Counted from the stretch's first letter, positions 3,345 through 44,729 are shown. The stretch: 64,000 nt of DNA from Acidimicrobiales bacterium (GCA_013003535.1 JABDIY010000009.1:13451-77450); one strand, 5' to 3'. Made by a program: numbers and translations. Notes: generated by a model from the letters alone, not told the origin.

Positions 3345-4349
3345 CTAGTCGGACAAGCCCTGCTCGCGCGTGGGATCATTCCCCCGCTTCCGCCTTGCAG
3401 GAGGCAAGCCCTCCAGGTCTTTCAGCAAGCGCTCGGCATGCGACGGGTCTTCAACCCCAGGATGGAACAGAGCAGATGAAATCGCCTCGCCCGTAGCTCG
3501 CGGCCTCGGGTCGGCCGGGTCGGGGAACGCCTCGCCATAACTCACCAAACCCTGCGACGGCTCCCGGACGGCCCCGGCTTTGGCTCCCACCCGCTCAAAT
3601 CGCTCGATGAGGGACCACTTGGATCCAACCAGCTGATGCGTTCCGCGCCGGCGAAAGAACAAACGCAGCAACAGCGCAAGACCAATGAGCACCGCGACCA
3701 CCAACAAGATGAGCCACCAGCTCAGAGACGAATCGTCGGGAGGTGGGGACGCTGGCAAGGGGTTCAGGTCGCCTGGCGTTCCCTCACCACCGGAGTCGAG
3801 CCCGAAGAACTCCGAGAGCCGCTGCCAAAGTCCGTCAGCCGAGGAATCTCGAGGCGCGTCACCTGGTAGAGAACCTGGGCCTTCTGCGGATGGAGAGCGC
3901 GGACTCAAAACCCAGTCACCCAAGAGGAGACTTACCAGTCCAACACCTACGGCCCCCGCAAGAAGTGAGAACAAACGACGAAGGGAGGGTCTCCCGAGGC
4001 TCGAGACCGCAGCTATCGCCAAGAAGACCAGTGGAGCCACCCCATGAATGCGGAGCCCGCCATCGGTTGAGCTGACCACAATGACCATCACCACAAGAGC
4101 TACCGACACGGTGCGCAGAACCAAGGGAACTCCAACAGCCACCAGCAGCACCGCGAGGAGAGCGAAGCCGATGGTCAAGAGCAGACCCCGGCCAAGGACC
4201 GCCTCAGGCCAGACCACAAACAGCGCAACTGCGGCAAGAGACAACGAAACGGCCTCAGCGTTGTCAACGCCACGCAATCGGCGCCAGAGTTCACCGGCAC
4301 CCCCGGGTCGGTTCACAATTTCACCACCAGCACCCCCGGGTCGGTTCAC
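3345..4349 (-). CDS. multi-pass membrane protein, third member of the MoxR/DUF58 operon (possibly DUF4129-type C-terminus)
   Basis: Several hydrophobic helices. GTGA overlap with the upstream DUF58 gene. The start lies inside a 33-bp tandem duplication, so an alternative GTG at 4316 is possible. Confidence 0.5.
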   Translation of the reverse strand: MNRPGGAGGEIVNRPGGAGELWRRLRGVDNAEAVSLSLAAVALFVVWPEAVLGRGLLLTIGFALLAVLLVAVGVPLVLRTVSVALVVMVIVVSSTDGGLRIHGVAPLVFLAIAAVSSLGRPSLRRLFSLLAGAVGVGLVSLLLGDWVLSPRSPSAEGPGSLPGDAPRDSSADGLWQRLSEFFGLDSGGEGTPGDLNPLPASPPPDDSSLSWWLILLVVAVLIGLALLLRLFFRRRGTHQLVGSKWSLIERFERVGAKAGAVREPSQGLVSYGEAFPDPADPRPRATGEAISSALFHPGVEDPSHAERLLKDLEGLPPARRKRGNDPTREQGLSD

Positions 4350-4351
4350 AA
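4286..4351. repeat. 33-bp tandem duplication (two copies, 22-nt exact core gcacccccgggtcggttcacaa)
   Basis: The exact core occurs at 4297..4318 and 4330..4351. It encodes VNRPGGAG twice at the N-terminus of the 3345..4349 ORF. Confidence 0.8.
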
Positions 4352-5374
4352 GTTCACCTCTACCTTCTCCAGGGTCACCATCACATGGGGACCGGAGACG
4401 GTCACGTCGATGTCGGTGGGTCTGGCCAGGGACAACCTCTTGAGCAGATCGATCTCATCGATAACCAGCCGTTCCACCAACCGTGCCTCGAGCCCCGTCT
4501 TCGGCAATGGACGTTTCTTGTCAACTCTTCGGGCTGCCAACAACCGAGCGCGCTCCAATGAGCCAGAAAGCTCCTCGGTTGCCAGCCGTAGCGACCTTCC
4601 GCTGCGCAGAACTTCCTCACAAATTGTCCTGGTCACCGCCAGCGAACTCAACACCATCCGGCGCCCTGTCACCGAACCTGAATTGGCTGGATCCATGGAC
4701 ACAACCACCAGAACCTCGTCCTCCTGCACCTGTTCATCGCGAACGTGCAGTTGAGTTGTCCGAGCCGTTGCCGACCAATTGACCCGGCCCATTCGGTCTC
4801 CTGGCACATATTCTCTGAGACGGTCCAGATCATGCATCGTGCTCATATGCGGAACCTCCACCAACCGCTCGCCGGCGTCCGGACCGCGGCATATCAACTG
4901 AGGGACGGGACGATGTGCCTTTCGTTTCGCCTCCACGAAACCAAATAACCGAAAGGCCTCAGTGAATTCCAACGATGAAACGGAATGTGGATTCCACCCG
5001 TCCAAGGCCACCGTTCGAGGTGTGCGGGCCGGAACAGGATCAATCTGGGGATCGGTGTTGCGCAGCGGAGCAACCTGCACTGTGGCATTATGCGGTCCCG
5101 CCATCTGGTGAACACGGACCGTTGGCGGGTGAGCGGTGTCCCCCACAGTCCGAAAAGGAGTTACCGCGAAACGTACTCTCCGCAACCCCACCACAGACAA
5201 GACAAGATCAACCAACCCCGCAATCATCAAGCTGGCCCCAGTGGCCAGGACCACGGCGGTCTCACTACGGCCGATGTACACAACCATCAAGCAACCCATG
5301 AAGCACGCCCAACCCATCACCGTCGGGCGGACCGTTGTGCGGCCGCGCAGAACTGATGGTTCAGCGGCTAGCAA
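4346..5374 (-). CDS. DUF58 domain protein (MoxR partner)
   Basis: Motif VNWSATARTTQLHVRDEQ is typical of DUF58. N-terminal TM helices. Overlaps the MoxR gene end by 14 nt. Confidence 0.8.
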   Translation of the reverse strand: MLAAEPSVLRGRTTVRPTVMGWACFMGCLMVVYIGRSETAVVLATGASLMIAGLVDLVLSVVGLRRVRFAVTPFRTVGDTAHPPTVRVHQMAGPHNATVQVAPLRNTDPQIDPVPARTPRTVALDGWNPHSVSSLEFTEAFRLFGFVEAKRKAHRPVPQLICRGPDAGERLVEVPHMSTMHDLDRLREYVPGDRMGRVNWSATARTTQLHVRDEQVQEDEVLVVVSMDPANSGSVTGRRMVLSSLAVTRTICEEVLRSGRSLRLATEELSGSLERARLLAARRVDKKRPLPKTGLEARLVERLVIDEIDLLKRLSLARPTDIDVTVSGPHVMVTLEKVEVNL

Positions 5375-6275
5375 CCGGGACTTCCACCGAGCGGATGATT
5401 CCGCGGATCACGGACTCGTCGAACTGTCTAGGGAGGCGATGGATGAGCACGTGCGGTGCCGCCGCCTGCACGTCTTCCGGTGCCACGTAGGACCGTCCTG
5501 AAATCACGGCGTGGCCACGGGCGACATCGGCCAAAGAAGCCGAGGCCCGAACACTCAACCAAACCTCGCCGTCCACCTGACGGACGGCATCGACGATATT
5601 GAGTACGTACTCCACGATCGAAGGAGCCATCGGGAGGTTTCGGACATGAAGCATGAGGTCAACGAGTTCGGGTCGCTCAAGCACCGCCGTCAGCCCGCCG
5701 AGGTGGGCGAAACCAGCACTCCCGGACAAGATGGCCCGCTCGCTTTCCCGTCCCGGCAGGCCGAGCTTCGTCATCAGAGCAAACCGATCGAGCTGGGCAG
5801 GGACGAGTGGATGCGTACCGCCCCCGCCGGGAGGATTCTGCGTGGCAATGACCATGAACGGCTGCGGCAATTGAGCGGTTGTACCGTCCACCGTGACCTG
5901 ATTCTCCGCCATCGCTTCGAGCAGTGCCGATTGCGCCTTTGGTGTAGCCCGATTGAATTCATCCACCAAAACCAGAGAGGCGAAGATGGGGCCGGCTCGG
6001 AACGGCCATGAGGCGTCGGCGGGATTGAAGACATGGATACCCGTGATATCGGTGGGCAACAAGTCCGGTGTGCCCTGAATACGAGAAGTATCCAGGCCCA
6101 ACGTGGTTGCCAGAGCTCGCGCCAGCACGGTCTTACCGACGCCCGGTCGGTCCTCCAAAAGCACGTGGCCACCGCTCAAGAGCGCCGCCAAAATCAGCGT
6201 AACCGCGTCTCGTTGGCCGGCGATGACGCGCTCCACGCTGGAAACGATTTCCTTCAGATGCTCGTGCTGCGCCAT
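5361..6275 (-). CDS. MoxR-family AAA+ ATPase
   Basis: GHVLLEDRPGVGKT Walker A, VLVDEFNR Walker B. ATG at 6275 gives the usual ~20 aa before the GQ motif. The ORF is open up to a GTG at 6401, so the start is uncertain. Confidence 0.85.
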   Translation of the reverse strand: MAQHEHLKEIVSSVERVIAGQRDAVTLILAALLSGGHVLLEDRPGVGKTVLARALATTLGLDTSRIQGTPDLLPTDITGIHVFNPADASWPFRAGPIFASLVLVDEFNRATPKAQSALLEAMAENQVTVDGTTAQLPQPFMVIATQNPPGGGGTHPLVPAQLDRFALMTKLGLPGRESERAILSGSAGFAHLGGLTAVLERPELVDLMLHVRNLPMAPSIVEYVLNIVDAVRQVDGEVWLSVRASASLADVARGHAVISGRSYVAPEDVQAAAPHVLIHRLPRQFDESVIRGIIRSVEVPVASR

Positions 6276-6426
6276 TGCCCAAGCATCGTAGGGTCCCGCC
6301 GATACGTTTGCCGTCCAGACGGTTGGGTCGTTGCCTCTGCTTTGCCTCACGTCGCTTCCCCGCTGCACCTCACGTCGCCCGTCAATGTCTCTATTGACCA
6401 CCGCCGTGGTCGGTTGGAAAGCAGCG

Positions 6427-6819
6427 TCAGCTAGCTGCCAGTTCGATTCGGAGTTCCGCCCACTTCTTGTCGGCCATGGCGAATGCGTCGAGGTCGTCGG
6501 TACTCAGCCGAGACACTGCGTCGGCCAGATCGTCGTTGGCCGATTTGACATCGATGTCTTCGGCTGGCACAGCCAGATCGGAGAGCACTGTGACCTTGTT
6601 GCCGGCGACGGACACAAAACCCCCGCGAACGGCAAAGCGCTTCACGGTCCCCTCGGCCTCAGTGACTTTGATCTCGCTGGTCTGCAACGAGCCGATGAAT
6701 GGCTCATGGCCGGTCAAGAAAGCGATGTCGCCGCCCCCACGCGTCCGAGCTGTAACCATGGTGCCTTCACCGGAGTAGAGGACCGATTCGGGAGAAACAA
6801 ACTCAATCGTAAAAGACAT
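6427..6819 (-). CDS. atpC: F1 ATP synthase epsilon subunit
   Basis: 130 aa directly downstream of atpD. Epsilon-like beta-sandwich sequence. Confidence 0.9.
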   Translation of the reverse strand: MSFTIEFVSPESVLYSGEGTMVTARTRGGGDIAFLTGHEPFIGSLQTSEIKVTEAEGTVKRFAVRGGFVSVAGNKVTVLSDLAVPAEDIDVKSANDDLADAVSRLSTDDLDAFAMADKKWAELRIELAAS

Positions 6820-6859
6820 CAGTGGACCTCAGTTCACTACGGAAGGCGAAGCAATGTGA

Positions 6860-8350
<1,491 letters not shown>

Positions 8351-33288: not shown

Positions 33289-33360
33289 GCCCTCGTAGCT
33301 CAGGGGATAGAGCATCCGCCTCCGGAGCGGTGTGCGCAGGTTCGAATCCTGCCGAGGGCG
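33289..33360 (+). tRNA. tRNA-Arg (anticodon CCG)
   Basis: Manual cloverleaf: acceptor GCCCTCG/CGAGGGC, D arm GCTC-AGGGGATA-GAGC, anticodon loop CTCCGGA, T arm GCAGG-TTCGAAT-CCTGC. No encoded CCA. Confidence 0.9.
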
Positions 33361-33496
33361 CGCTGATTTGTTTGACTTCGCTCGCCCAGGCTCGTACCTC
33401 GCCGAGGGGTCGCTCCGTGGCTCGCTACCACTCAACCGGAACAAAAAGAGGCGAATCGTACAAGACAGTTTTCGTGGGAATCCCCACAATGGAGGT

Positions 33497-36400
33497 ATGT
33501 CGTCTGTTCATGGTTCCCCCGCCCGCGCCAACCCGACTTCAGCGCAGCCCAACCTCCACGCTGAGGCCGCCATCGATCTGGTGAAGTCCTGGCTACGGGA
33601 AGCCGATGCCGTCACAACTCGAACGGAGCGGACGACAAATGACCGACTTCGTGGACTCCTCGACGACCCCGACGGCACCGCATTCGCCATGCGGTTCGTA
33701 GATCGAGTTATCCGGCCCGAAAGCAATGGGGTAGCGGCGGCTCAGTTGTCGTCGTTGGTGAAACGCCACGCCCTTCCGAGGTTTCTGTCGCCGATCGACA
33801 AGCTGCTGCTTCAGGCCGGTGCCCGCCTCGCCCCAGTCCTACCGGGGATTGTGATGCCCCTCGCCCAGCAACGGATGCGCCAGCTCGTCGGCCATCTGGT
33901 GGTGGACGCGCGGCCCCAACCCATGGCCAAACACCTCAAGAACCGGAGCGACGAGGGCTTCACGCTGAACGTCAACCTACTCGGCGAAGCGGTGCTGGGA
34001 CATGGCGAAGCCGATCGTCGACTGAACGCCGCCCACGATCTCCTCAACCAGCCCAATGTGGACTACGTGTCAGTGAAGGTCTCGTCGATCGTGGCCCAGC
34101 TCCCTCACTGGGATCACGAAGCTGCGGTGCTACAGGTCAACCAGCGGTTGCGACCACTCATGCTTCAGGCCGCCACCAGTTCACCACCCAAATTCATCAA
34201 CCTCGATATGGAGGAGTACCACGACCTAGAACTGACGATCGCCGCATTCACCCAACTGCTCGACGAACCTGAGCTCCACGGGGTCGATGCAGGCATCGTG
34301 TTACAGGCCTACCTTCCGGACTCGTTCGACGCTCTTCAGCACCTCGTGCAGTGGGCGACGGCGCGTCACCGCCGCACCGTCCGCGGTGTCCCGGGCGGCA
34401 GCATCAAGATTCGCCTGGTCAAAGGGGCGAATCTCGCCATGGAAAAAGTGGAGGCCGAAATCCACAATTGGACCCAGGCGCCGTATCGCTCCAAGACCGA
34501 GGTGGACGCCAACTACAAACGGTGTTTGGACTGGGTGTTCACTACCGAACGGACCGAAGCCGTGCGAATTGGCGTAGGCAGTCACAACCTGTTCGACGTG
34601 GCCTGGGCCCACCTTCTCAGCCAGGAGCGGGACGTTGCTGATCGGGTTGAGTTCGAAATGCTTCAGGGAATGGCGGCGGGGCAGGCCCGATTGGTTCAGA
34701 AAGCCGCCAACGGACTTCTGCTCTACACGCCCGTGGTCAAGCCCAGCGACTTCGACGTTGCCATCAGCTATCTCTTCCGTCGTCTCGAAGAAAACTCCTC
34801 CGACGACAACTTCATCCGCCACTTGTTTGCCTTGACGCCCGAATCGGCAGCGTTCGCCAAGGAGGCCGAGAAGTTTCGCACCGCCCTGGCCAATCGCTGG
34901 GCGGTTGGGACCGGTGCGCAACGCCTTCAGGACAGAACGACCCGATCGGACACCGTATCGGCCTCGCCATTCCGAAACAGCGCCGACACCGATCCGGCCC
35001 TTGCCACCAACCGCCGCTGGGCTCGCGAAATCGTGAACCGCCCGAACGAGACCGCTCATGCGCCGATCACCACCTCCTTAGAAGAAATCGACCGCCTCAT
35101 GGAGGCGGCTCGCTCCGCCCAGCCAAAGTGGGCGGCGCTGACCGCCGATACCAGACGGACGATCCTTCACGACGTCGGTCGACAATTGATGGATCGCCGG
35201 GCGGACCTTCTGGCGGCGATGGTCCACGAGGGAAAGAAGACCATTCAGCAAGCAGACCCTGAAGTGTCCGAAGCGATCGACTTCGCCTTCTGGTACGGCG
35301 ATCACGCCGCGGATCTCACCCGCCCCGCAGGCTCAGCCGACGTCGCTTTCAAGCCGCTCGGCGTGGTGGCGGTCATCCCGCCGTGGAACTTCCCGGTGGC
35401 GATCCCCGCCGGTGGTGTCCTTGCGGCGTTGGCCGCTGGTAACTCGGTGGTGTTCAAACCAGCCCCCGAAACCCCTCGATGTGCCGAGATCGTGGCGGAA
35501 TGCTGCTGGGCGGCCGGCATCCCTGACGACGTCCTGAAGTTCGTCCGGACCCCCGATGACCATGTGGGTCGGCATCTGATTACCCACCCGTTGGTGGGCG
35601 GGGTGATTCTCACTGGAGCGGAAGAGACGGCCCGCCTGTTTCAGTCGTGGAAACCAGAGATAAAACTGTTCGCAGAAACCAGCGGAAAAAACGCTCTGAT
35701 CATCACCCCTAACGCAGACCTCGATTTGGCCGTGAAGGACCTCGCCGATTCGGCATTTGGTCACTCGGGCCAGAAGTGTTCCGCCGCCAGCCTGGCGATC
35801 TGTGTTGGCGGAGTGGTCGACTCCGAACGGTTCCGCCGGCAACTGGTTGACGCCGTCCAGTCGTTGGCGGTCGGGAACCAAACCGACCTCGTCACCACGA
35901 TGGGCCCGATGATCCATCCTCCGGAGGGCAAACTCCTCCGAGCACTCACCACCCTCGAGCCGGGGGAAAGTTGGTTGATCAAACCCGAACGATTGTCCGA
36001 TGACGTCTGGAGTCCGGGCGTTCGATTAGGCGTGAAATCCGGCTCATGGTTCCACATCACTGAATGCTTTGGCCCGGTACTGGGAATCATGACTGCGGAC
36101 ACACTCGACGAGGCCATCCAACTGCAGAACGCCACTGCCTTCGGTCTGACCGGCGGGATCCACTCCCTGGATCCGGCGGAAATCGAACAGTGGCAGGACA
36201 CCGTGCAGGTTGGAAACGCATATGTGAACCGAGGCATCACCGGGGCGATGGTGCAGCGCCAGCCGTTTGGCGGTTGGAAACACTCTGCCATCGGCCCCGG
36301 TGCGAAGGCTGGCGGTCCGAACTATGTGAACCAGTTGGGCACCTGGCAACCGATCGAGGATTCCAGCACCGACGCAGCAAGACTCGAGGCGGCCCGCCAA

Positions 36401-36802
36401 AGTGACGATGCCGCATGGGCGAATGAGTTCTCAGTGGAACACGATCCAACCGGCCTGCGGAGCGAATCGAACGTTTTCCGCTATCGGCCACTCCCCCGCC
36501 TCGGTTTGGTTATCGGTGAAGATGCGCTGGAGTGGGAAATGGACCGGGTGCGGTCCGCAGCCCGTACCTGTGGAGTTCCCATGGTGGAGGTACCCCCAAC
36601 CATCACCGATTTCGTTTCGGCCGGCATCGAACGCGTTCGAGTACTCGGTTCGGTTCCAGTTGCGTTCCGCGTGGCGGCCACCGCCGCCGGGGTTCACCTG
36701 GCCGACGATCCGGTGACCACTGACGGTCGGATTGAATTGCTGCATTACCTACGGGAGCAGGCGATCAGCCGGACCTTACATCGCTACGGCAACCTGTTGT
36801 AG
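33497..36802 (+). CDS. putA: bifunctional proline dehydrogenase / 1-pyrroline-5-carboxylate dehydrogenase
   Basis: PRODH barrel region followed by an ALDH domain (FGHSGQKCSA catalytic Cys). The ORF N-extension overlaps the tRNA, so the ATG at 33497 is used. Confidence 0.88.
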   Translation: MSSVHGSPARANPTSAQPNLHAEAAIDLVKSWLREADAVTTRTERTTNDRLRGLLDDPDGTAFAMRFVDRVIRPESNGVAAAQLSSLVKRHALPRFLSPIDKLLLQAGARLAPVLPGIVMPLAQQRMRQLVGHLVVDARPQPMAKHLKNRSDEGFTLNVNLLGEAVLGHGEADRRLNAAHDLLNQPNVDYVSVKVSSIVAQLPHWDHEAAVLQVNQRLRPLMLQAATSSPPKFINLDMEEYHDLELTIAAFTQLLDEPELHGVDAGIVLQAYLPDSFDALQHLVQWATARHRRTVRGVPGGSIKIRLVKGANLAMEKVEAEIHNWTQAPYRSKTEVDANYKRCLDWVFTTERTEAVRIGVGSHNLFDVAWAHLLSQERDVADRVEFEMLQGMAAGQARLVQKAANGLLLYTPVVKPSDFDVAISYLFRRLEENSSDDNFIRHLFALTPESAAFAKEAEKFRTALANRWAVGTGAQRLQDRTTRSDTVSASPFRNSADTDPALATNRRWAREIVNRPNETAHAPITTSLEEIDRLMEAARSAQPKWAALTADTRRTILHDVGRQLMDRRADLLAAMVHEGKKTIQQADPEVSEAIDFAFWYGDHAADLTRPAGSADVAFKPLGVVAVIPPWNFPVAIPAGGVLAALAAGNSVVFKPAPETPRCAEIVAECCWAAGIPDDVLKFVRTPDDHVGRHLITHPLVGGVILTGAEETARLFQSWKPEIKLFAETSGKNALIITPNADLDLAVKDLADSAFGHSGQKCSAASLAICVGGVVDSERFRRQLVDAVQSLAVGNQTDLVTTMGPMIHPPEGKLLRALTTLEPGESWLIKPERLSDDVWSPGVRLGVKSGSWFHITECFGPVLGIMTADTLDEAIQLQNATAFGLTGGIHSLDPAEIEQWQDTVQVGNAYVNRGITGAMVQRQPFGGWKHSAIGPGAKAGGPNYVNQLGTWQPIEDSSTDAARLEAARQSDDAAWANEFSVEHDPTGLRSESNVFRYRPLPRLGLVIGEDALEWEMDRVRSAARTCGVPMVEVPPTITDFVSAGIERVRVLGSVPVAFRVAATAAGVHLADDPVTTDGRIELLHYLREQAISRTLHRYGNLL

Positions 36803-36845
36803 GGCTACCTCCGGCAAGGAAGTTATCATTCGGCCAGCCGGCTGA

Positions 36846-38273
36846 TCAGTCCGGCCAACTGGCTTCGATCTCGTCGAGGAACTCATAGGCATCGATCGTC
36901 CCACCGGCAAAACCCACCGAGGCTCGCAAGAAGACGTCGGAGCCGATTTGGGCCGGCATCAATTCTGACCCATCGAACCGGAACGGATTGGCACTCACCA
37001 GGATCGCTGCCATTTCTCGGTCGATCGTTGTCCCGTACAGATCGAGGTTGTGCAATTGGTGAGCGCTGAGATACGCACCACTTCCAGCCAAGATGCGGTT
37101 GTTGGCGAAATCGGGTGCCGCCATGTACGCCAGAAGAGTCATGGTGGCACGGTCAGAACTGAGGGCGGACGCAAAGGTCCCGGTCCCCACCACCACATTC
37201 CCGAAGCCTTCATCGACCACCGGAAAATGGAAGGCAGAGAGATCCAGACCGGCTCCGAGGTTCGCGCCGTCGGCCCGGTAGGTGATGGCGATCGAACTGC
37301 GCTGGCGGTGCATGACACACTTGCCGTCCACGTGATTCTGAGCTGCTTCTGTGAACGAAATCGTGTTGATCGCGTTTCGCCGATACACATTCCCGGGAGC
37401 GAACCACATATCGCCCACCCGGTTCACCACGGAAACCACCCGCTCATCGTTGAATGGGACCTGGTGATTGACCCAGCTGTCATAAAACGCGGGGCCCTCG
37501 ATCCGAATCATGTAGTCCTCGATCCAATCAGTTGCCGGCCAACCGGACTTTTCGCCAGCGGCCAAACCAATGCACCAGGGAGTGAGGCCATCGGCCTTGA
37601 TGCGTTCCACCAGCGCTTCCAGCTCGGCCAAGCGTTGCGGAATCTCATAGCCTCTGGCCTCGAACTCCCTGGGCGAGTACCACACGAGGCTGGTTACGGT
37701 CGCCGAAATGGGGACACCGTAGGTACGGTTGTTGAGCGACACCAACGATGACCAAAATGGATCGAAACCGGCGGCAAGTTGCCGCCGGATGAGCCTCGGC
37801 AACGGAACGAGGTCCCCCCGACCGGCGAGATCTTGCAAGCGATTGGGGTGGGCGGTAATCACCACGTCCGGAGCGGACCCCGCTTCGATCATCTCGTCCA
37901 CAAGTTCATCGGAATTGACCGCCCCGACATAGTCGACCTCGATTCCCGTGGCCGCGGTGAAACGCCGAAATGCGAACGTCAAACTCTCAGCGCCACCACT
38001 CACCTCGGGGCCAAAGACTGTGACCGAGGCTCCCGGAACGGAGTCGAGCTGGTCCAGCGCCGGCTGTTGCGGATCGAAGCTGGAATCAGAGAACTGGGGG
38101 ATGCGTATCTGCGGATTCAAGATGAGCTGCGGAACCGCGATGGTGGTAGCCGAGGGTTCGGCGTTCCTCACCTCCGCAGTGCCCACACCCAGGGCAGCGT
38201 CGAACCTCGATGGTTCAACAGTGCAGGCGGCTGCACTCAGAACCAGACACGCAACGACCGCCAATCGGCTCAC
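36846..38273 (-). CDS. extracellular solute-binding lipoprotein (family-1, sugar-type SBP) with no adjacent permease or ATPase
   Basis: Signal plus lipobox MSRLAVVACLVLSAAAC. SBP_bac_1-like length and pattern. GTGA overlap with the upstream channel gene. Confidence 0.75.
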   Translation of the reverse strand: MSRLAVVACLVLSAAACTVEPSRFDAALGVGTAEVRNAEPSATTIAVPQLILNPQIRIPQFSDSSFDPQQPALDQLDSVPGASVTVFGPEVSGGAESLTFAFRRFTAATGIEVDYVGAVNSDELVDEMIEAGSAPDVVITAHPNRLQDLAGRGDLVPLPRLIRRQLAAGFDPFWSSLVSLNNRTYGVPISATVTSLVWYSPREFEARGYEIPQRLAELEALVERIKADGLTPWCIGLAAGEKSGWPATDWIEDYMIRIEGPAFYDSWVNHQVPFNDERVVSVVNRVGDMWFAPGNVYRRNAINTISFTEAAQNHVDGKCVMHRQRSSIAITYRADGANLGAGLDLSAFHFPVVDEGFGNVVVGTGTFASALSSDRATMTLLAYMAAPDFANNRILAGSGAYLSAHQLHNLDLYGTTIDREMAAILVSANPFRFDGSELMPAQIGSDVFLRASVGFAGGTIDAYEFLDEIEASWPD

Positions 38274-39799
38274 GATCTGCTCCGCCTGCTGGTGGGCTTG
38301 GCACCATTGGGCTCCTCGGGGGAATCGGCGGGCTTGATACGAGAAACCGCCGCCCTCCTGCTCTGCACGATTCCTTGGATCTCGTCAGCGAACGTGATGT
38401 TCACACGTGCGATGTTGTCCACTGCGGTTCCCGAGATGATGACCGCCTCCACGTCGGTCAAGGCACGGATCGTGAGCAGATTGGGTTTCGTGCCCAGCAT
38501 CGATTGCTCACCGAAAACCTCCCCCTTTGTCAGCGTCACCACCTCGTTCGCTTTGTTGAGCCCAACCGCAGTTCCGCTCAGGATCAAACCCAACCCGCGG
38601 CTTCCACCACCTTCCACCTGAAGCAGCTCGCCGGCGGCAAAGGTGAGGATGTGGTTGGCGTCGGTCGTACGGTCGGTTTCCTCGCTGAGGAGTTGCTCAT
38701 TCGCCAACGTTTCCGCGACGGATTCGGGAATCGTCGATCCCGACAAAGCCCGAACTCGCCGCTGCACCAGTTCTGGCTGTTCTTCGGTTGGAAGGGCTCC
38801 CGCATCGTAATTGTGGAGGGTTCGAATGGGGAATGGGATCGTGATCTCGTGCCGCTTGGCGGCATACCAGATTCGGGTCATGAAATGACTGCGGACCGTC
38901 GGCATGATGTCGAAGGACTCCATACGCAAGTACACCTGGTAGCCGATCGAGAAGTCGTCGTAGCTGACGCACCGAATATCAACTTCGCTCTCTGGCACGA
39001 GGTGCGGCGTCCCCCTGATGACCTCGGTCAGCATTGCCCGAACCTTGTTCGGCGGATCGTCATAACTGAAACCCAGATTCACAACTTCGATGTGATCCAA
39101 CTCTGGCCTGGAGTTGTTGATTATCAGTTTGGTTCCAAACACGATGTTCGGGACCACTATGAGGTCCTCCTGACGATTGCGGATCCGAACGGTCCGCCAG
39201 TTGATGTCGGTGACCTTTCCCTCCACTCCGTCGATGTCGATCCAATCGCCTACAACGAATGGTTTCTCGCTCAGAATTGCTATGCCCCCCATGAGACTGG
39301 CGAGCGTGTCCTGCATGGCGAGGCCAAATACCAACCCGCCTAGACCGAGGGCGGCGAACGTGCCTGTGATGCTGAGGCCCCAAATCATGGACAAGATGGC
39401 CAGCGAGCCCACGAAAAGCAAAGCGACACGGGCGATGTCTACGAGGAGACGAGGGGCCTGACTGAAGAGGTTGTACTCTCCTCCGGCCGTCAGGAATTCC
39501 CGCACCAGCGACAACAACACTGCGAGCCCAAGAACCGCAGCAAGCGTGCCAGCCACCTGCACGACCATGCTTGGGCTGTCGCCTGAGCGCAGCTCCAGCA
39601 CCCGCTGCATGAACAGCACGGCAACAGCCAAGGGGAGAAACACGTTTCGCAGGAGCCGGACCGGCCGAACGAATCTGTTGTTTCGCCGCTCCAGTCGGCG
39701 GATGATCTCCCCGAGCAGAATAGCCGACAGGGGAAACCCGATCACGAGGATCGCACCCCATTGGAACCACGCCTCGGAGAAGAGTGAGCGACCCAGCAT
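38270..39799 (-). CDS. MscS-family mechanosensitive channel with a C-terminal cyclic-nucleotide-binding-like domain (bCNG-type)
   Basis: GLAMQDTLASLMGGIAILSEKPFVVGDWI...VPN MscS core. C-terminal beta-roll with FGE. ATG at 39799 is preceded by GGAGGA; a TTG at 39826 is also possible. Confidence 0.85.
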   Translation of the reverse strand: MLGRSLFSEAWFQWGAILVIGFPLSAILLGEIIRRLERRNNRFVRPVRLLRNVFLPLAVAVLFMQRVLELRSGDSPSMVVQVAGTLAAVLGLAVLLSLVREFLTAGGEYNLFSQAPRLLVDIARVALLFVGSLAILSMIWGLSITGTFAALGLGGLVFGLAMQDTLASLMGGIAILSEKPFVVGDWIDIDGVEGKVTDINWRTVRIRNRQEDLIVVPNIVFGTKLIINNSRPELDHIEVVNLGFSYDDPPNKVRAMLTEVIRGTPHLVPESEVDIRCVSYDDFSIGYQVYLRMESFDIMPTVRSHFMTRIWYAAKRHEITIPFPIRTLHNYDAGALPTEEQPELVQRRVRALSGSTIPESVAETLANEQLLSEETDRTTDANHILTFAAGELLQVEGGGSRGLGLILSGTAVGLNKANEVVTLTKGEVFGEQSMLGTKPNLLTIRALTDVEAVIISGTAVDNIARVNITFADEIQGIVQSRRAAVSRIKPADSPEEPNGAKPTSRRSRS

Positions 39800-41934
39800 C
39801 AGACTTTTTCCTCCGTCCAGAGCCAAGCTTCGATGAAGTGACCGTCAACGTTGAGCGATTCTGCTGGAACGAACGAGAATCGCTCTGCCAGCGAATCGGC
39901 GAGCCCTTTCTCCACCAGCAGCGTGCCGGGTGCCGCAGCATCGGCCAAACCAGCCGCATCGCTCACCGGATCGCCCCAGATCTCGAAGCTAATTTGGGTG
40001 CTTCCCACAATTCCCGCCTCGACATTCCCCGAGGCCACGCCGATCTGGAGCTCGAGGTTCCAATCATTGAATTTGCTCAGCGCTTCCAGTTTTGCATCGA
40101 GCGCTACCGCGAACTGCATGGCTCGTTGTCGTTGATCGAGCCGGGGCTCCAACAACCCACAGACGGCGATATAGGTGCTGCTGCCGCCCCTGATCTTCTC
40201 GACCCCGTTGGCGGCCGCCACCTCATCGAAGCTCCCGATCACCTCATCGAGCAGGTCCTTGGCGTCTTCCACGGAAGCTGTTCGTGCATAACGGCTGAAT
40301 CCGCTGAGGTTGGCCACGACCACAGCAACGTTGGGGTACTCGTCGACAACGTTGGTCTCTCCCTTGCTCACCCGCTCGGCGATCTGGGAGGGCATGAGGT
40401 TGAGTATCAGCGACTGCATTTCGGCGGTTTGTGCTTCGATGATATGGCTCTGTTCACGCATTCCGGAAACCATGTGATCGATCGACGCCGCCAGCTGGCC
40501 CACCTCGTCTCGACCCGACACAGGAACTTCGCTGTTCAGATCCCCCTTTGTCACACCGTCGGCCCACTCGATGAGCGCGGTGACCGGACGGATGAGTCGG
40601 GTGGCTATGGGCATGGCGAGTCCGGTGAGGAACAAGACGATCAAGCCGGTGGCAGCCAGAAGAGCCCGCTGAAGGCTGTTCACCGGTGCCTCCGCCTCCG
40701 ACAACGCTTGCTCAGAAATGATGGCCCAATCCAGACCGGCAGGGATATCCAGTGGTCCATAGCTACTGAGGGTGACCCCGCCGTGATATGTCTCGATCAC
40801 GTCGATCCCAACCTCGCCGGCCAGCCCACGCTGGGCGGCGGCGGTTCGAACCACTTGACGAAGGACGGTATTTCCGCTCGCCACGGTGTCGGACCCGTCC
40901 TCCGATCCCGTCGCATCGATCGCAGCGCGGAACGCGGTGGGGTCCTCGACCAGCAACCGGGACTGCGATCGCATCATCAGATCCGAGCCCACCAGGTAGG
41001 CCTCCCCGGTCTCACCAAAGCCAGCTTCTTCCCAGTTCCCGTCGGCCGTCATCACCGAATCGATTTGGTCGACAGGGATTTGGAACGCCAGAACACCCAA
41101 GAGGCTTTGATCAACCGGGTTGAATATCGGTGCCGCGAGAAAAGCCACTGGGGCATCCAGGGAGGGCCGGTAGAACCCGTAGTCGGAGAAGGTGACAAAA
41201 CCGGGAACGGGATTTCGTAGAACCTGTTCCACCAGTTCGGCCAGCGAAGTACGGCCCCATGGGCCGGACGAAAGGCTCGTTGCGAAGTCGACGTGCTTCT
41301 CGACCGTGTAGACGATGCGCTTGGTGTTCGGTTCGATGATGTAGATGTCGCCGTAACCGAATCGATCGGCAAAAGTTCTCAGCGAGGGGTGATAGCGGGA
41401 ATGGACGCGGCTGTAGAACGAGCCGTCATCGGCTTCATCGATGGCCCGCCGCCTCAATGCAGCATTGTCGATCGTGTAGAAGTGCTGGAGGTGAACCGCC
41501 ACCGGATCCGTTGGTATGTACTGCTCGGCTTTGAGCTCCGCAGTTCTCGCGTCAGCTGGCAAACGGACCAAGAAATCCTCATAAAACGTTTGGCTGGACT
41601 CGGTCCAAACGGGATCGGGAGTTTGTCCAGCCAGCTGTTCGGCTGCAACGGCGAACTCGGCCGCTGCCGTCGCCATGCTCCGGTCCTGACTTAGCGTGGC
41701 CGCCTGGTCCTCCACCAACTGAAGATAGCGCTCGATCAGTTCGGCACGGGTCTCGCGCTGCGCTACCAAATCGTCCTCTACCAGCTCGCTGATCGCCCGC
41801 TGGCCCCGCTGAAAACTGATCACTCCTACGACCAGAACAGAGATGATCGCAACGCCCAAGACCGTTATCAACAGTTTGGACTTCACACTGAGATGTCTGA
41901 TCACCAGCTTGATAGTACTGCGACGGGAAATCAT
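39799..41934 (-). CDS. membrane receptor: extracytoplasmic Cache-like sensor, HAMP, degenerate class III cyclase-homology domain
   Basis: Two TM helices flank a ~300-aa sensor. HAMP (DEVGQLAASIDHM). The CHD aligns with Rv1625c but the catalytic residues are replaced. Possible starts at 41973 (GTG), 41934 (ATG) and 41886 (GTG). Confidence 0.8.
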   Translation of the reverse strand: MISRRSTIKLVIRHLSVKSKLLITVLGVAIISVLVVGVISFQRGQRAISELVEDDLVAQRETRAELIERYLQLVEDQAATLSQDRSMATAAAEFAVAAEQLAGQTPDPVWTESSQTFYEDFLVRLPADARTAELKAEQYIPTDPVAVHLQHFYTIDNAALRRRAIDEADDGSFYSRVHSRYHPSLRTFADRFGYGDIYIIEPNTKRIVYTVEKHVDFATSLSSGPWGRTSLAELVEQVLRNPVPGFVTFSDYGFYRPSLDAPVAFLAAPIFNPVDQSLLGVLAFQIPVDQIDSVMTADGNWEEAGFGETGEAYLVGSDLMMRSQSRLLVEDPTAFRAAIDATGSEDGSDTVASGNTVLRQVVRTAAAQRGLAGEVGIDVIETYHGGVTLSSYGPLDIPAGLDWAIISEQALSEAEAPVNSLQRALLAATGLIVLFLTGLAMPIATRLIRPVTALIEWADGVTKGDLNSEVPVSGRDEVGQLAASIDHMVSGMREQSHIIEAQTAEMQSLILNLMPSQIAERVSKGETNVVDEYPNVAVVVANLSGFSRYARTASVEDAKDLLDEVIGSFDEVAAANGVEKIRGGSSTYIAVCGLLEPRLDQRQRAMQFAVALDAKLEALSKFNDWNLELQIGVASGNVEAGIVGSTQISFEIWGDPVSDAAGLADAAAPGTLLVEKGLADSLAERFSFVPAESLNVDGHFIEAWLWTEEKV

Positions 41935-42946
41935 GGGCGGCAACAACCGACGCCTGATCCCATTGTGCTTCACTATTCAGATCGACCCCATCTCAGCCTC
42001 TGCAACCCGTGCCGGTCTGCTTTCACTTCTCGGATTGCTCGTCGTCGGCCTGTGCGTCGTGGCATTACCAGGCCTTCTTTCTGACGACGATCAGGCGGGA
42101 AATTCTGTCCCCGCCCAGACAGCCAGCACATTCACGAGCACCCAATCGACAGATCCTCAGAACGGTCCTTCAACAACATTGCTGGCCACAGCTCGGATTA
42201 GTGCTGAGGGAATCGTGCTCGACGGCCTGGTATCGACCGAAGGCCAGCGAGATGCTCTCGTGGATGCGGCGCGTCGCCGCGTGGGTCCGGCACTTGTCGA
42301 GGACCAACTCGCGGTGGCAACGGGCCTGACCTCCTCGGAAGGACGCGACAACGGCGTGGTTGCTCTCCAGAGCTTCATTACGGGTGTACCGGACGGGGTG
42401 ACCGTGGCCGCCACTACATCGGTAGATCAGCTATCGGTTGTCGGCGAGGCGACCGACGCTGTAGCAGCGGCCGGCGTTGAGCGGGCCCTCACAACCGCTA
42501 TCGCCAGTTCCCCCGGAATGGAGAGCACGAACACCGTTGAAGTTCCGCCGCCGCCACCCCCCACCGAAGCCGAACTTCGAGCCGCCGCCCAAGATGAACT
42601 GACCAACTTGAATACCCTGCTCGCCGCTGAGGTCCTCTTTGCCACCAGCTCGAACGAACCGACCGAAGAATTCAAGGCGCTCTTGGACCGGGTGCCGGAT
42701 CTGCTGACCCGCCATCCGTCAGTAACGGTCGAGATCGTGGGCCACACCGACGACCGGGGATCTGAAGGCGGCAATCAGAAACTCAGCGATCAACGGGCGC
42801 GGGCAGCTGTGGACTACCTGGTGACAGTTGGGGTGGACCCGGCCCGGCTCAGCTCCAGGGGCGCCGGCGAAAGCGAACCGATCGCCACCAACTCAACTCG
42901 CGACGGGCGCGCCGCCAATCGCCGGGTCGAGCTCGTCGCCCGCTGA
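41933..42946 (+). CDS. OmpA/MotB-domain protein with an N-terminal TM anchor
   Basis: C-terminal VEIVGHTDDRGSEGGNQKLSDQRA...NRRVELV peptidoglycan-binding domain. Start uncertain (ATG 41933 or TTG 41963). Confidence 0.75.
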   Translation: MGGNNRRLIPLCFTIQIDPISASATRAGLLSLLGLLVVGLCVVALPGLLSDDDQAGNSVPAQTASTFTSTQSTDPQNGPSTTLLATARISAEGIVLDGLVSTEGQRDALVDAARRRVGPALVEDQLAVATGLTSSEGRDNGVVALQSFITGVPDGVTVAATTSVDQLSVVGEATDAVAAAGVERALTTAIASSPGMESTNTVEVPPPPPPTEAELRAAAQDELTNLNTLLAAEVLFATSSNEPTEEFKALLDRVPDLLTRHPSVTVEIVGHTDDRGSEGGNQKLSDQRARAAVDYLVTVGVDPARLSSRGAGESEPIATNSTRDGRAANRRVELVAR

Positions 42947-43751: not shown

Positions 43752-44729
43752 TCACGGATAGGGCCAGCCGTTGGCTGAGCAGCCGTGGAGGCTCTTGGTC
43801 TGTTGTTGCATGACCGGGGCGGGTCCGCTCCCAGGGCAGCTTTGGTGGCCAAGACCCAAGAAATGGCCGACCTCGTGATTTATGACGTACGCCCGATATT
43901 CCGACAACGGCGCAGTCCAGTGTTCCACTGCACCGTTCCAACGGTCGACGTTGATGTTGATGTTCCGTCCGTTCCGACAGGAGAGCGTGCCGTTGGTGCG
44001 CAGTGGAGCGCAGCGCCGGTCCACCGTGGCTGGAGATGCGATCAGAATGGCGATATCCGAACGCTGATCGTCGTCGGTCCGCCGCAGCCTGAGGTCGAAT
44101 CGAGCTATCCAACTCCGGTGATCGGCCAGGATTGATTGCACCTCGAGCGTTGTTTGGTCAGTGGGAAGGCCCAACCCGGCTTCTACGGTCACCGAGAACG
44201 ATGTCACCGGGCCGGTTCCGAACCCGAAGGTGAACGGATCGAGATCAGCGGGCTCCCCCAGGAAACTATATGTTCGGACGAACTCTGGTCCGGCGGCGAA
44301 ATAGCGCATCACAGCTCCGCGCGTAAGAGCTCCAGTCGAGAGCAGATCCTGCCAGTAGGACAGGCCACTGCTATCGGGCTCTCGAAACAGGACATTCCGG
44401 TAGACGAGGTTGAGGAACTCGCCGTCGCTCGGCTGACCGTAGCGGTTCTGAAACTCTGGTGACGTCGCAAAGAACTGGGCGATCTCGTCGATGCTGGACC
44501 CTGCGTTGTTGATCTCGATCCAATACCGGGCACCAGAGAGGTCTGGATGACGTTCAAAGAATGCGAAATACAAGCGGAGAACGTCAGCGTTCGAGGCGCG
44601 AAAGAATTCAGAACTGGTGATCTGGTCCAATTCCGATGGGGTGGCGGCAACGGGGGCGGTGCCGTGATTGGTTGAACCAACGACTGCCAATCCCACGCAA
44701 ACGACCACCTTGCGCAGGGTCCCGAACAT
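43752..44729 (-). CDS. secreted DUF4214 domain protein fused to a metzincin-type zinc protease domain (DUF3152-like)
   Basis: Signal peptide, one DUF4214 repeat, then C-terminal HEVGHFLGLGH plus PVMQQQ (Met-turn-like). Confidence 0.7.
   Translation of the reverse strand: MFGTLRKVVVCVGLAVVGSTNHGTAPVAATPSELDQITSSEFFRASNADVLRLYFAFFERHPDLSGARYWIEINNAGSSIDEIAQFFATSPEFQNRYGQPSDGEFLNLVYRNVLFREPDSSGLSYWQDLLSTGALTRGAVMRYFAAGPEFVRTYSFLGEPADLDPFTFGFGTGPVTSFSVTVEAGLGLPTDQTTLEVQSILADHRSWIARFDLRLRRTDDDQRSDIAILIASPATVDRRCAPLRTNGTLSCRNGRNININVDRWNGAVEHWTAPLSEYRAYVINHEVGHFLGLGHQSCPGSGPAPVMQQQTKSLHGCSANGWPYP

Follow-up and report, generated by a model that had tools for sequence, protein, structure and literature searches.

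Analysis of a 64,000-nucleotide stretch of DNA from an Acidimicrobiales bacterium (GCA_013003535.1 JABDIY010000009.1:13451-77450; hereafter the window) revealed three consecutive minus-strand genes, encoding a membrane receptor that ends in a class III cyclase-homology domain (CHD), an MscS/YnaI-like channel whose C terminus bears a cyclic nucleotide-binding (CNB)-like domain, and a solute-binding lipoprotein. Translational coupling joins the three genes into a single operon, which is conserved in the Acidimicrobiales, and the receptor and channel genes are an old two-gene module found over at least six phyla. The comparative pattern, in which a decayed cyclase domain is encoded beside a channel with a decayed nucleotide pocket, is well supported. 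From it we infer a three-protein sensory channel system in which the CHD is coupled directly to the channel and no cyclic nucleotide is involved, a reading that we regard as the best of those considered, though evenly poised between right and wrong.

The open reading frames called in this part of the window occupy 36846..41973, and the limits of the three genes were set by deposited proteins from the same Acidimicrobiales metagenome-assembled genome (P0001, P0036, and P0133), each of which is 100% identical to the translation of the window (Table 1). The deposited proteins fix the start codons at GTG 41904 for the receptor, ATG 39799 for the channel, and GTG 38273 for the binding protein. A first-pass annotation, made from the sequence alone, had described three genes chained through a TGATG and a GTGA and had placed the operon at 36846-41973. 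The chain and both overlaps are as claimed, as is the lower boundary, but 41973 is the end of the longest possible open reading frame only and lies beyond the real start of the receptor gene.

The same order of receptor, channel, and binding protein was found in every Acidimicrobiales relative with a long enough contig (loci L001, L002-L004, L006, L013, L014, L015, L095, and L096), the loci L005, L007, L008, and L012 ending at contig edges. The triad is found down to 39% identity, with the proteins of L014, which lies on a 4.37-Mb chromosome, being only 39-45% identical. The first junction reads TGATG in L001, L002, L005, L006, and L008 and TAATG in L014, the second reads GTGA or ATGA in every triad besides that of the window, and no intact triad, over a range of identity from 92% to 39%, lacks either overlap, so that they are not a product of chance. 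Most relatives, L001-L008 among them, also share the flanking OmpA, PNP_UDP_1, and PutA genes. L014 and L095 keep the triad between different flanking genes, and its conservation is therefore more than synteny. A metagenome scan with the alignment of the triad binding proteins recovered two loci only, both of which are triads.

The receptor consists of a first transmembrane helix, a dCache-like ectodomain, a second transmembrane helix, a HAMP domain, and the CHD, with hydrophobic segments at residues 5-34 and 408-439. The match of the ectodomain to Pfam dCache_1 (28.7 bits, E=1e-6) is below the 45-bit cut-off; the same family is matched by 17 of 18 homologues (E <= 1e-3). Modelled with AlphaFold2 (pLDDT 92, pTM 0.90), the ectodomain, which lies between the two transmembrane helices, takes a double PAS-like fold carried by a long stalk helix, and its best Foldseek matches are the solved dCache domains of PctA, PctC, CtaA, TlpQ, and DctB (E ~1e-7, probability 1.0), where the TM-score is only 0.35-0.5 because of ~100 extra helical residues. 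The top 50 matches include many solved dCache ligand-binding domains (PctA/B/C, TlpQ, DctB, and TlpC). The HAMP domain (PF00672, 43 bits against a cut-off of 25) directly follows the second transmembrane helix, and the transducer helix ahead of the CHD is conserved.

The CHD itself was assigned to the cyclase-homology fold by Pfam PF00211 (Guanylate_cyc, 77 bits against a cut-off of 21.9), and it aligns with solved cyclases (7yz9, 4p2f, and 8buz) with E = 1e-28 to 1e-32. The catalytic positions were read from an alignment to the solved Rv1625c-type cyclase Cya (7yz9) and mammalian cyclases, and were then re-aligned by motif. The six positions that are canonically D-K-D-D-N-R read N532-K570-S576-E641-S648-G652, with N532 encoded at 40309..40311, S576 at 40177..40179, and G652 at 39949..39951. 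Five of the six catalytic residues are thus replaced: both metal-binding aspartates (N532 and S576), the substrate-binding aspartate (E641), the transition-state asparagine (S648), and the arginine (G652). Of the substrate-defining pair, the lysine is kept (K570) and the aspartate has become a glutamate. In all orthologues at 56-88% identity the CHD is degenerate at the same positions, including those of the metal aspartates, and the remainder of the domain is well conserved, as expected of a maintained pseudo-enzyme rather than a decaying gene. With both metal aspartates, the asparagine, and the arginine gone, the CHD of the window is predicted to be incapable of catalysis.

The channel comprises five N-terminal helices, the MscS β and α-β domains, and the C-terminal CNB-like domain, the arrangement of the bCNG proteins, a described MscS-CNB family known since 2010 (a 2010 study and Malcolm et al. 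2012, as cited in PMC13591265). All three Pfam MS_channel modules (1st, 2nd, and 3rd) are present, with 69 bits for MS_channel_2nd and 33 bits for MS_channel_3rd, and cNMP_binding is matched at 35.4 bits against a cut-off of 27.5. The AlphaFold2 model (pLDDT 81) has YnaI and MscS as its best Foldseek matches (E ~1e-16), and its CNB-like domain is a β-barrel followed by a C-terminal helix (pLDDT ~80-89 over residues 380-480). The phosphate-binding cassette reads F-G-E-Q-S-M-L-G-T-K-P-N-L-L-T-I-R-A. Alignment to solved PKG and PKA CNB domains revealed that F-G-E is kept and that N440-L-L stands in place of R-[ST]-A, the element that clamps the cyclic phosphate. N-L-L opens a stretch, N-L-L-T-I-R-A-L-T-D-V-E, that is conserved in the clade.

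To delimit the distribution of the receptor-channel pair, one genome per species was scanned with the channel alignment and the 80 best loci were kept. In 48 of the 80 the channel gene is directly preceded, on the same strand, by a gene for a full-length Cache-HAMP-CHD homologue of the receptor (29-39% identity), the gap being usually 18-120 nucleotides. The hosts belong to the Cyanobacteria (including Acaryochloris marina MBIC11017, Synechococcus, Cyanobium, Pseudanabaena, and Leptolyngbya), Planctomycetota (including Kuenenia), Verrucomicrobiota, Bacteroidota (Maribacter and Saprospiraceae), Proteobacteria, and Acidimicrobiales. Clustering of all open reading frames within 2.5 kb of the 48 pairs found no third conserved partner outside the Acidimicrobiales, and the binding protein is therefore an addition specific to that order. 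The first-pass annotation had proposed that the triad be sought in related genomes of the Actinomycetota; it recurs in all of the Acidimicrobiales relatives, two of them with different flanks, but the conserved core proved to be the pair, which extends far beyond that phylum. In four cyanobacterial loci (L022, L028, L065, and L074) a response-regulator/GAF/histidine-kinase hybrid gene lies just upstream of the pair.

Pairing and the state of the cassette go together. Among the scorable loci, the cassette arginine is lost in 45 and kept in none of the channels paired with a Cache-HAMP-CHD gene, and is lost in 2 (L025 and L026) and kept in 24 of the unpaired channels (Fisher p = 6e-17, phylogeny ignored). 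This value overstates the independence of the observations, because the arginine-keeping channels form one clade in a neighbour-joining tree. The cassette positions G, E, M, G, R, and A never vary in the arginine-keeping clade and do so among the paired channels, with entropies of 1.2-3.0 bits. L025 and L026 are sister Pseudanabaena loci (channel at 6001..7389) with no CHD gene within 6 kb upstream, where a 185-residue open reading frame is found, and the pair may have split in that lineage.

The cyclase domains follow the same division. All six catalytic residues are kept in only 1 of about 50 paired CHDs (L073), and most of the cyanobacterial ones read D-K-D-D-N-[A/G/H] or D-K-D-D-K-[G/A]. 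A protein of the same receptor architecture with no channel neighbour, P0014, has canonical catalytic residues. Nine arginine-keeping channels, from Planctomycetota, Gemmatimonadota, and Acidobacteriota (L044, L047, L076, L079, L081, L082, L083, L085, and L087), have neighbouring CHASE2-like class IIIb cyclases, all nine with a complete D-K-D-T-N-R, and a canonical-cassette channel with such a cyclase is probably a genuine cAMP-gated arrangement. Taken together, the alignments show that the canonical pocket goes with the canonical enzyme and the decayed pocket with the decayed enzyme, the clade of the window being the extreme of the latter. The L073 locus (Saprospiraceae, CHD at 3865..5958) combines the full catalytic set with a channel that nevertheless has no cassette arginine.

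The binding protein has a signal peptide with an N-terminal hydrophobic segment and a lipobox, A-A-A-C17, and matches Pfam SBP_bac_1 with 60 bits. P0133 bears the source name 'carbohydrate ABC transporter substrate-binding protein', 'alpha-glucoside transport system substrate-binding protein' is the source name of its many homologues at 33-46% identity, and the closest solved relative is only AcbH (E=1e-14). The triad binding proteins form a tight clade of their own, at least 48% identical to the protein of the window, and have a clade-specific N-terminal extension with the consensus P-Q-I-R-I-P-Q-F-x-D-S-S-F-D-P, in which R57, P59, F61, and F66 are invariant among the aligned triad proteins. 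The extension is missing from the transporter paralogues and is a candidate docking peptide. The genes of the nearest non-triad homologues (42-44% identity, also from Acidimicrobiia) have as neighbours two permease genes together with genes for MalK-type ATPases, an alpha-amylase, and a LacI regulator, which is what recruitment of a paralogue to a sensor would lead one to expect, and the paralogues P0147 and P0153 are encoded beside permease genes of their own. By these relationships the triad protein is a paralogue of an alpha-glucoside-type ABC uptake protein that became part of the operon of receptor and channel. A crude search of the window for simple motifs (Walker A with LSGGQ, and the EAA loop) brought up no ABC ATPase or permease, and none was called within ~8 kb of the triads in the loci of relatives. 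The pseudo-cyclase, the degenerate CNB domain, and the orphan binding protein of the first-pass annotation were all borne out by these comparisons, the last within the window and the loci of relatives.

Table 1. Positions of the operon, its protein domains, and the adjoining gene in the window
Feature	Position	Strand	Basis
Gene 1, membrane receptor, 701 aa	39799..41904	-	P0001, GTG start, Pfam
Extracytoplasmic dCache-like sensor domain, residues 35-400	40705..41802	-	Pfam dCache_1 (sub-threshold), AlphaFold2 and Foldseek
HAMP, residues 433-482	40459..40608	-	Pfam PF00672
CHD, residues 521-689	39838..40344	-	Pfam PF00211, alignment to solved cyclases
TGATG junction	39797..39801	-	Receptor TGA 39801..39799 and channel ATG 39799..39797, one base (A) in common
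Gene 2, MscS/YnaI-like channel, 509 aa	38270..39799	-	P0036, ATG start, Pfam, AlphaFold2/Foldseek
CNB-like domain, residues ~342-487	38339..38776	-	Pfam cNMP_binding, alignment to PKG/PKA CNB domains
Phosphate-binding cassette, G426-A446	38462..38524	-	N440 (38480..38482) at the position of the conserved arginine
GTGA junction	38270..38273	-	Channel TGA 38272..38270 and binding-protein GTG 38273..38271, 4-base overlap
Gene 3, solute-binding lipoprotein, 475 aa	36846..38273	-	P0133, GTG start, Pfam
Clade-specific N-terminal extension after the lipobox cysteine (about residues 18-75), the part at about residues 18-68	about 38070..38222	-	Family alignment
Divergent OmpA-family gene (start approximate)	41915..42946	+	Pfam OmpA, 70 bits

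In the mechanism that we propose, a solute, probably an alpha-glucoside-type sugar or a compatible solute, would load the lipoprotein, and the loaded lipoprotein would dock on the dCache domain. The HAMP domain and the conserved cyclase-transducer helix would then reorient the pseudo-cyclase dimer, which would contact the CNB-like domains beneath the cytoplasmic vestibule of the channel and shift its gating, with a flux of ions or osmolytes as the output. Since the operon encodes no effector other than the channel, its output has to be a flux of ions or solutes; a link to sugar/compatible-solute balance is suggested, speculatively, by the relatedness of the binding protein to alpha-glucoside carriers. 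The CNB-homology domain of KCNH (EAG/ERG/ELK) channels is a protein-protein regulatory module that has lost the phosphate-binding arginine, and the CNB-like domain described here could be a protein-interaction module of the same kind. Signaling without a diffusible nucleotide fits the data, because the CHD is dead, the cassette arginine is gone, and degenerate CHDs are found with arginine-less CNB domains and canonical CHDs with canonical ones. A binding protein that loads the Cache sensor and a degenerate CHD that gates the channel by direct contact had been the interpretation of the first-pass annotation, which is supported in part: the triad is conserved and both modules are degenerate, but the pair is its core and the combination is not wholly new. 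More tentatively, and with a probability that we place somewhat below even, a widespread subfamily of bCNG channels may not be nucleotide-gated at all, the decayed cyclase domain of a Cache-HAMP receptor directly gating, in six phyla, an MscS-like channel via its CNB-homology domain in a one-step relay, with the Acidimicrobiales having captured a sugar/compatible-solute lipoprotein as input.

Several points weigh against direct coupling. Channels of the MscS type assemble as heptamers and cyclase domains as dimers, and a simple 1:1 complex is therefore not obvious. A single deep split in the channel tree separates the arginine-less, paired channels from the arginine-keeping ones, and the association thus amounts to a single evolutionary event or a few of them rather than 45. 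In most paired channels the F-G-E of the cassette is retained, given which an atypical ligand pocket may persist in them. Outside the Acidimicrobiales most paired CHDs keep both metal aspartates, the lysine, the aspartate, and the asparagine, with only the arginine lost, and residual catalysis is possible there, L073 keeping everything. The binding protein could serve a permease encoded beyond the 64-kb window. Finally, bCNG channels have been published as cyclic-nucleotide gated (Caldwell 2010, cited in PMC13591265).

An alternative to CHD-CNB contact is that the CNB-like barrel binds a metabolite other than a 3',5'-cyclic nucleotide, like other CRP/FNR-type barrels, with the pseudo-cyclase acting as a nucleotide-binding or scaffold module and the genes being linked by regulation or assembly. 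The barrel is well predicted, the glycine and F-G-E scaffold is largely kept in paired channels, and the metal- and adenine-binding residues that most paired CHDs outside the Acidimicrobiales retain fit nucleotide binding without turnover. In the clade of the window, however, such binding by the CHD is doubtful because the metal aspartates are gone too, the variability of the pocket residues over the paired clade, with entropies of 1.2-3.2 bits, argues against one conserved ligand, and strict adjacency over six phyla exceeds the usual need of co-regulation. We consider this explanation unlikely, though not strikingly so.

Plain transport would mean that the binding protein feeds a distant ABC permease with an alpha-glucoside or compatible solute and shares its operon with an efflux valve for osmolyte balance, the Cache domain binding a ligand of its own. 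The start/stop overlap with the channel gene that is kept in every triad, the separate clade of the triad proteins with its extension absent from transport paralogues, the lack of any permease or ATPase gene within ~8 kb in relatives or, by the crude scan, in the window, and the typical role of binding-protein genes beside dCache receptor genes as signaling partners (PMC8050422) all speak against it. It draws on the identity to named alpha-glucoside transport proteins and the presence of related genes in permease operons, on the occurrence of the receptor-channel pair without a binding protein in all other phyla, and on the genome being seen only as a 64-kb window. Plain transport appears quite unlikely and, if right, removes only the first step of the proposed mechanism.

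In a conventional relay the channel would be a nucleotide-gated bCNG protein whose atypical cassette still binds a nucleotide made by another cyclase or by a heterodimer of the CHD with an active subunit. Class III cyclases act as dimers with complementary half-sites, as in the mammalian C1/C2 cyclases, but the CHD of the window is without both the C1-type residues (two aspartates) and the C2-type residues (aspartate, asparagine, and arginine) and can therefore complete neither half of a shared site. The window contains no second cyclase, nor any CHD or CNB gene besides those of the operon. The retained F-G-E is compatible with binding; against this, an asparagine stands in place of the arginine that PKA, PKG, CAP, and HCN-type domains universally require to hold the cyclic phosphate, the Ser/Thr-Ala that should follow is Leu-Leu, and throughout the paired clade the cassette is relaxed, whereas the sister clade has it frozen. 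A Synechococcus homologue has been termed 'cAMP-regulated' (PMC7522525), and residual catalysis in other phyla, together with L073, keeps a nucleotide relay alive for the wider family. Overall, this explanation is very unlikely. Least of all can the three genes be credited as fortuitous neighbours held together by local synteny in close genomes, as the OmpA, PNP_UDP_1, and PutA flanks common to L001-L008 might suggest, since L014 and L095 have the triad between other flanks, the pair is kept over six phyla, and the overlaps are conserved.

The operon is flanked by a divergent OmpA-family gene upstream and a convergent PutA gene downstream. The start codons of the receptor and OmpA-family genes are ~10 nucleotides apart (41904..41933), and 4 nucleotides apart in L001, so that, unless the mRNAs are leaderless, each promoter must be located within the opposite gene. 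Back-to-back with the receptor gene in L001-L008, L012, L013, L015, and L096, the OmpA-family gene is missing from L014 and L095 and may be an accessory partner within the closer clade only. Promoter and terminator scans of 36500..42500 gave sites no more numerous than in shuffled sequence, and an Rfam search found no riboswitch or other RNA within the operon. A tRNA gene at 33289..33360 (+) (Rfam RF00005, 63 bits) lies within the longest PutA open reading frame, 33332..36802, and the true PutA start must accordingly be further downstream. The open reading frame at 43752..44729 (-) encodes DUF4214 repeats and a DUF3152 (weak Matrixin-like) domain, adjoins a RecQ-like helicase gene, and is apparently unrelated to the triad. 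Two long-read metagenome-assembled contigs have a receptor gene that is split among two or three frames (L013, 3894..5998; L095, 5206..7307), through assembly error or pseudogenisation. P0041, a 614-residue protein with Pfam matches to CHD, MscS, and CNB, was considered as a natural 'Rosetta stone' fusion and was rejected as a frameshift artefact of an error-rich long-read assembly, because the CHD gene of L095 is scattered over three frames and other genes there are split too.

Several known systems resemble parts of the triad. Like bCNG proteins, which are often encoded beside a class III cyclase gene, the channel combines an MscS pore and vestibule with a C-terminal CNB-type domain; unlike them, its subfamily is without the Arg-Ser/Thr-Ala core and its partner cyclase is dead. 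The published description as 'cyclic-nucleotide gated' suits the sister subfamily, in which both the cassette and the neighbouring CHASE2-type cyclases are canonical. The receptor shares domain order, fold, HAMP domain, and transducer helix before the CHD with class III transmembrane adenylyl cyclases that have HAMP or Cache sensors (such as the mycobacterial Rv1625c/Cya and the Rv3645-type HAMP cyclases) and differs from them in the replacement of five of the six catalytic residues. Plasmodium PKG also has a degenerate CNB domain, and, as in that kinase and the KCNH channels, the CNB fold has been retained after loss of the phosphate-binding arginine; the channel part of KCNH proteins is not homologous to that of the window, and any functional likeness is hypothetical. 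A Pycsar defence system, in which a class III-type cyclase gene likewise lies beside a gene for a membrane effector with a CNB domain, was considered and rejected: PADLOC PycC matches reach only 20-23 bits, there is no effector match for the channel, and the catalytic aspartates are absent. Further differences from Pycsar are the extracellular sensor on a dead cyclase, an effector that is a full MscS channel, and the vertical conservation of the pair as a housekeeping-type locus.

When a binding protein is encoded beside a dCache receptor, it commonly activates that receptor, and the receptors known to depend on such proteins include those of LuxP/LuxQ, HptA/HptS, NspS/MbaA, ChvE/VirA, CosB/CosT, and GltB/PctA (review PMC8050422). 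In the LuxP/LuxQ-type systems, as in the triad, the binding-protein gene stands by a dCache-type receptor gene with no transporter genes in the operon, and GltB/PctA provides an SBP_bac_1 precedent for the family of the binding protein described here. The output of the triad, a pseudo-cyclase with a channel, differs from the kinases, chemoreceptors, or GGDEF/EAL proteins of those systems, and no cyclase-type receptor appears in the table of binding-protein-activated systems (PMC8050422).

The first-pass annotation had known of no description of the combination of genes. It is not wholly new, because the bCNG family has been described and cyclase genes beside 'cAMP-regulated' MscS genes have been mentioned briefly for genomic islands of Synechococcus (PMC7522525). 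The searchable literature, whose scope does not extend to the founding bCNG papers, makes no mention of a systematic loss of the arginine in a cyclase-linked subfamily, of dead cyclase domains there, or of an attached binding protein. According to a 2026 review, it is still not understood what bCNG channels do physiologically or what part cyclic nucleotides play in gating them, and no structure exists (PMC13591265).

Collectively, the comparisons divide the bCNG family in two, one group with a canonical cassette, and a canonical cyclase where one is nearby, and the other linked to Cache-HAMP receptors, with enzyme and pocket both decayed. In this split lies a concrete explanation, open to testing, of why work with nucleotides on such channels may be confusing. 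Direct coupling of receptor and channel would represent a possible new bacterial signaling logic, in which a receptor acts directly on a channel and a pseudo-enzyme is the coupling device, and the Acidimicrobiales triad is its cleanest test case because there the sequence excludes catalysis. If true, the triad would add cyclase-type receptors to the sensors activated by binding proteins and would link the extracellular sensing of sugars or compatible solutes to an osmolyte valve.

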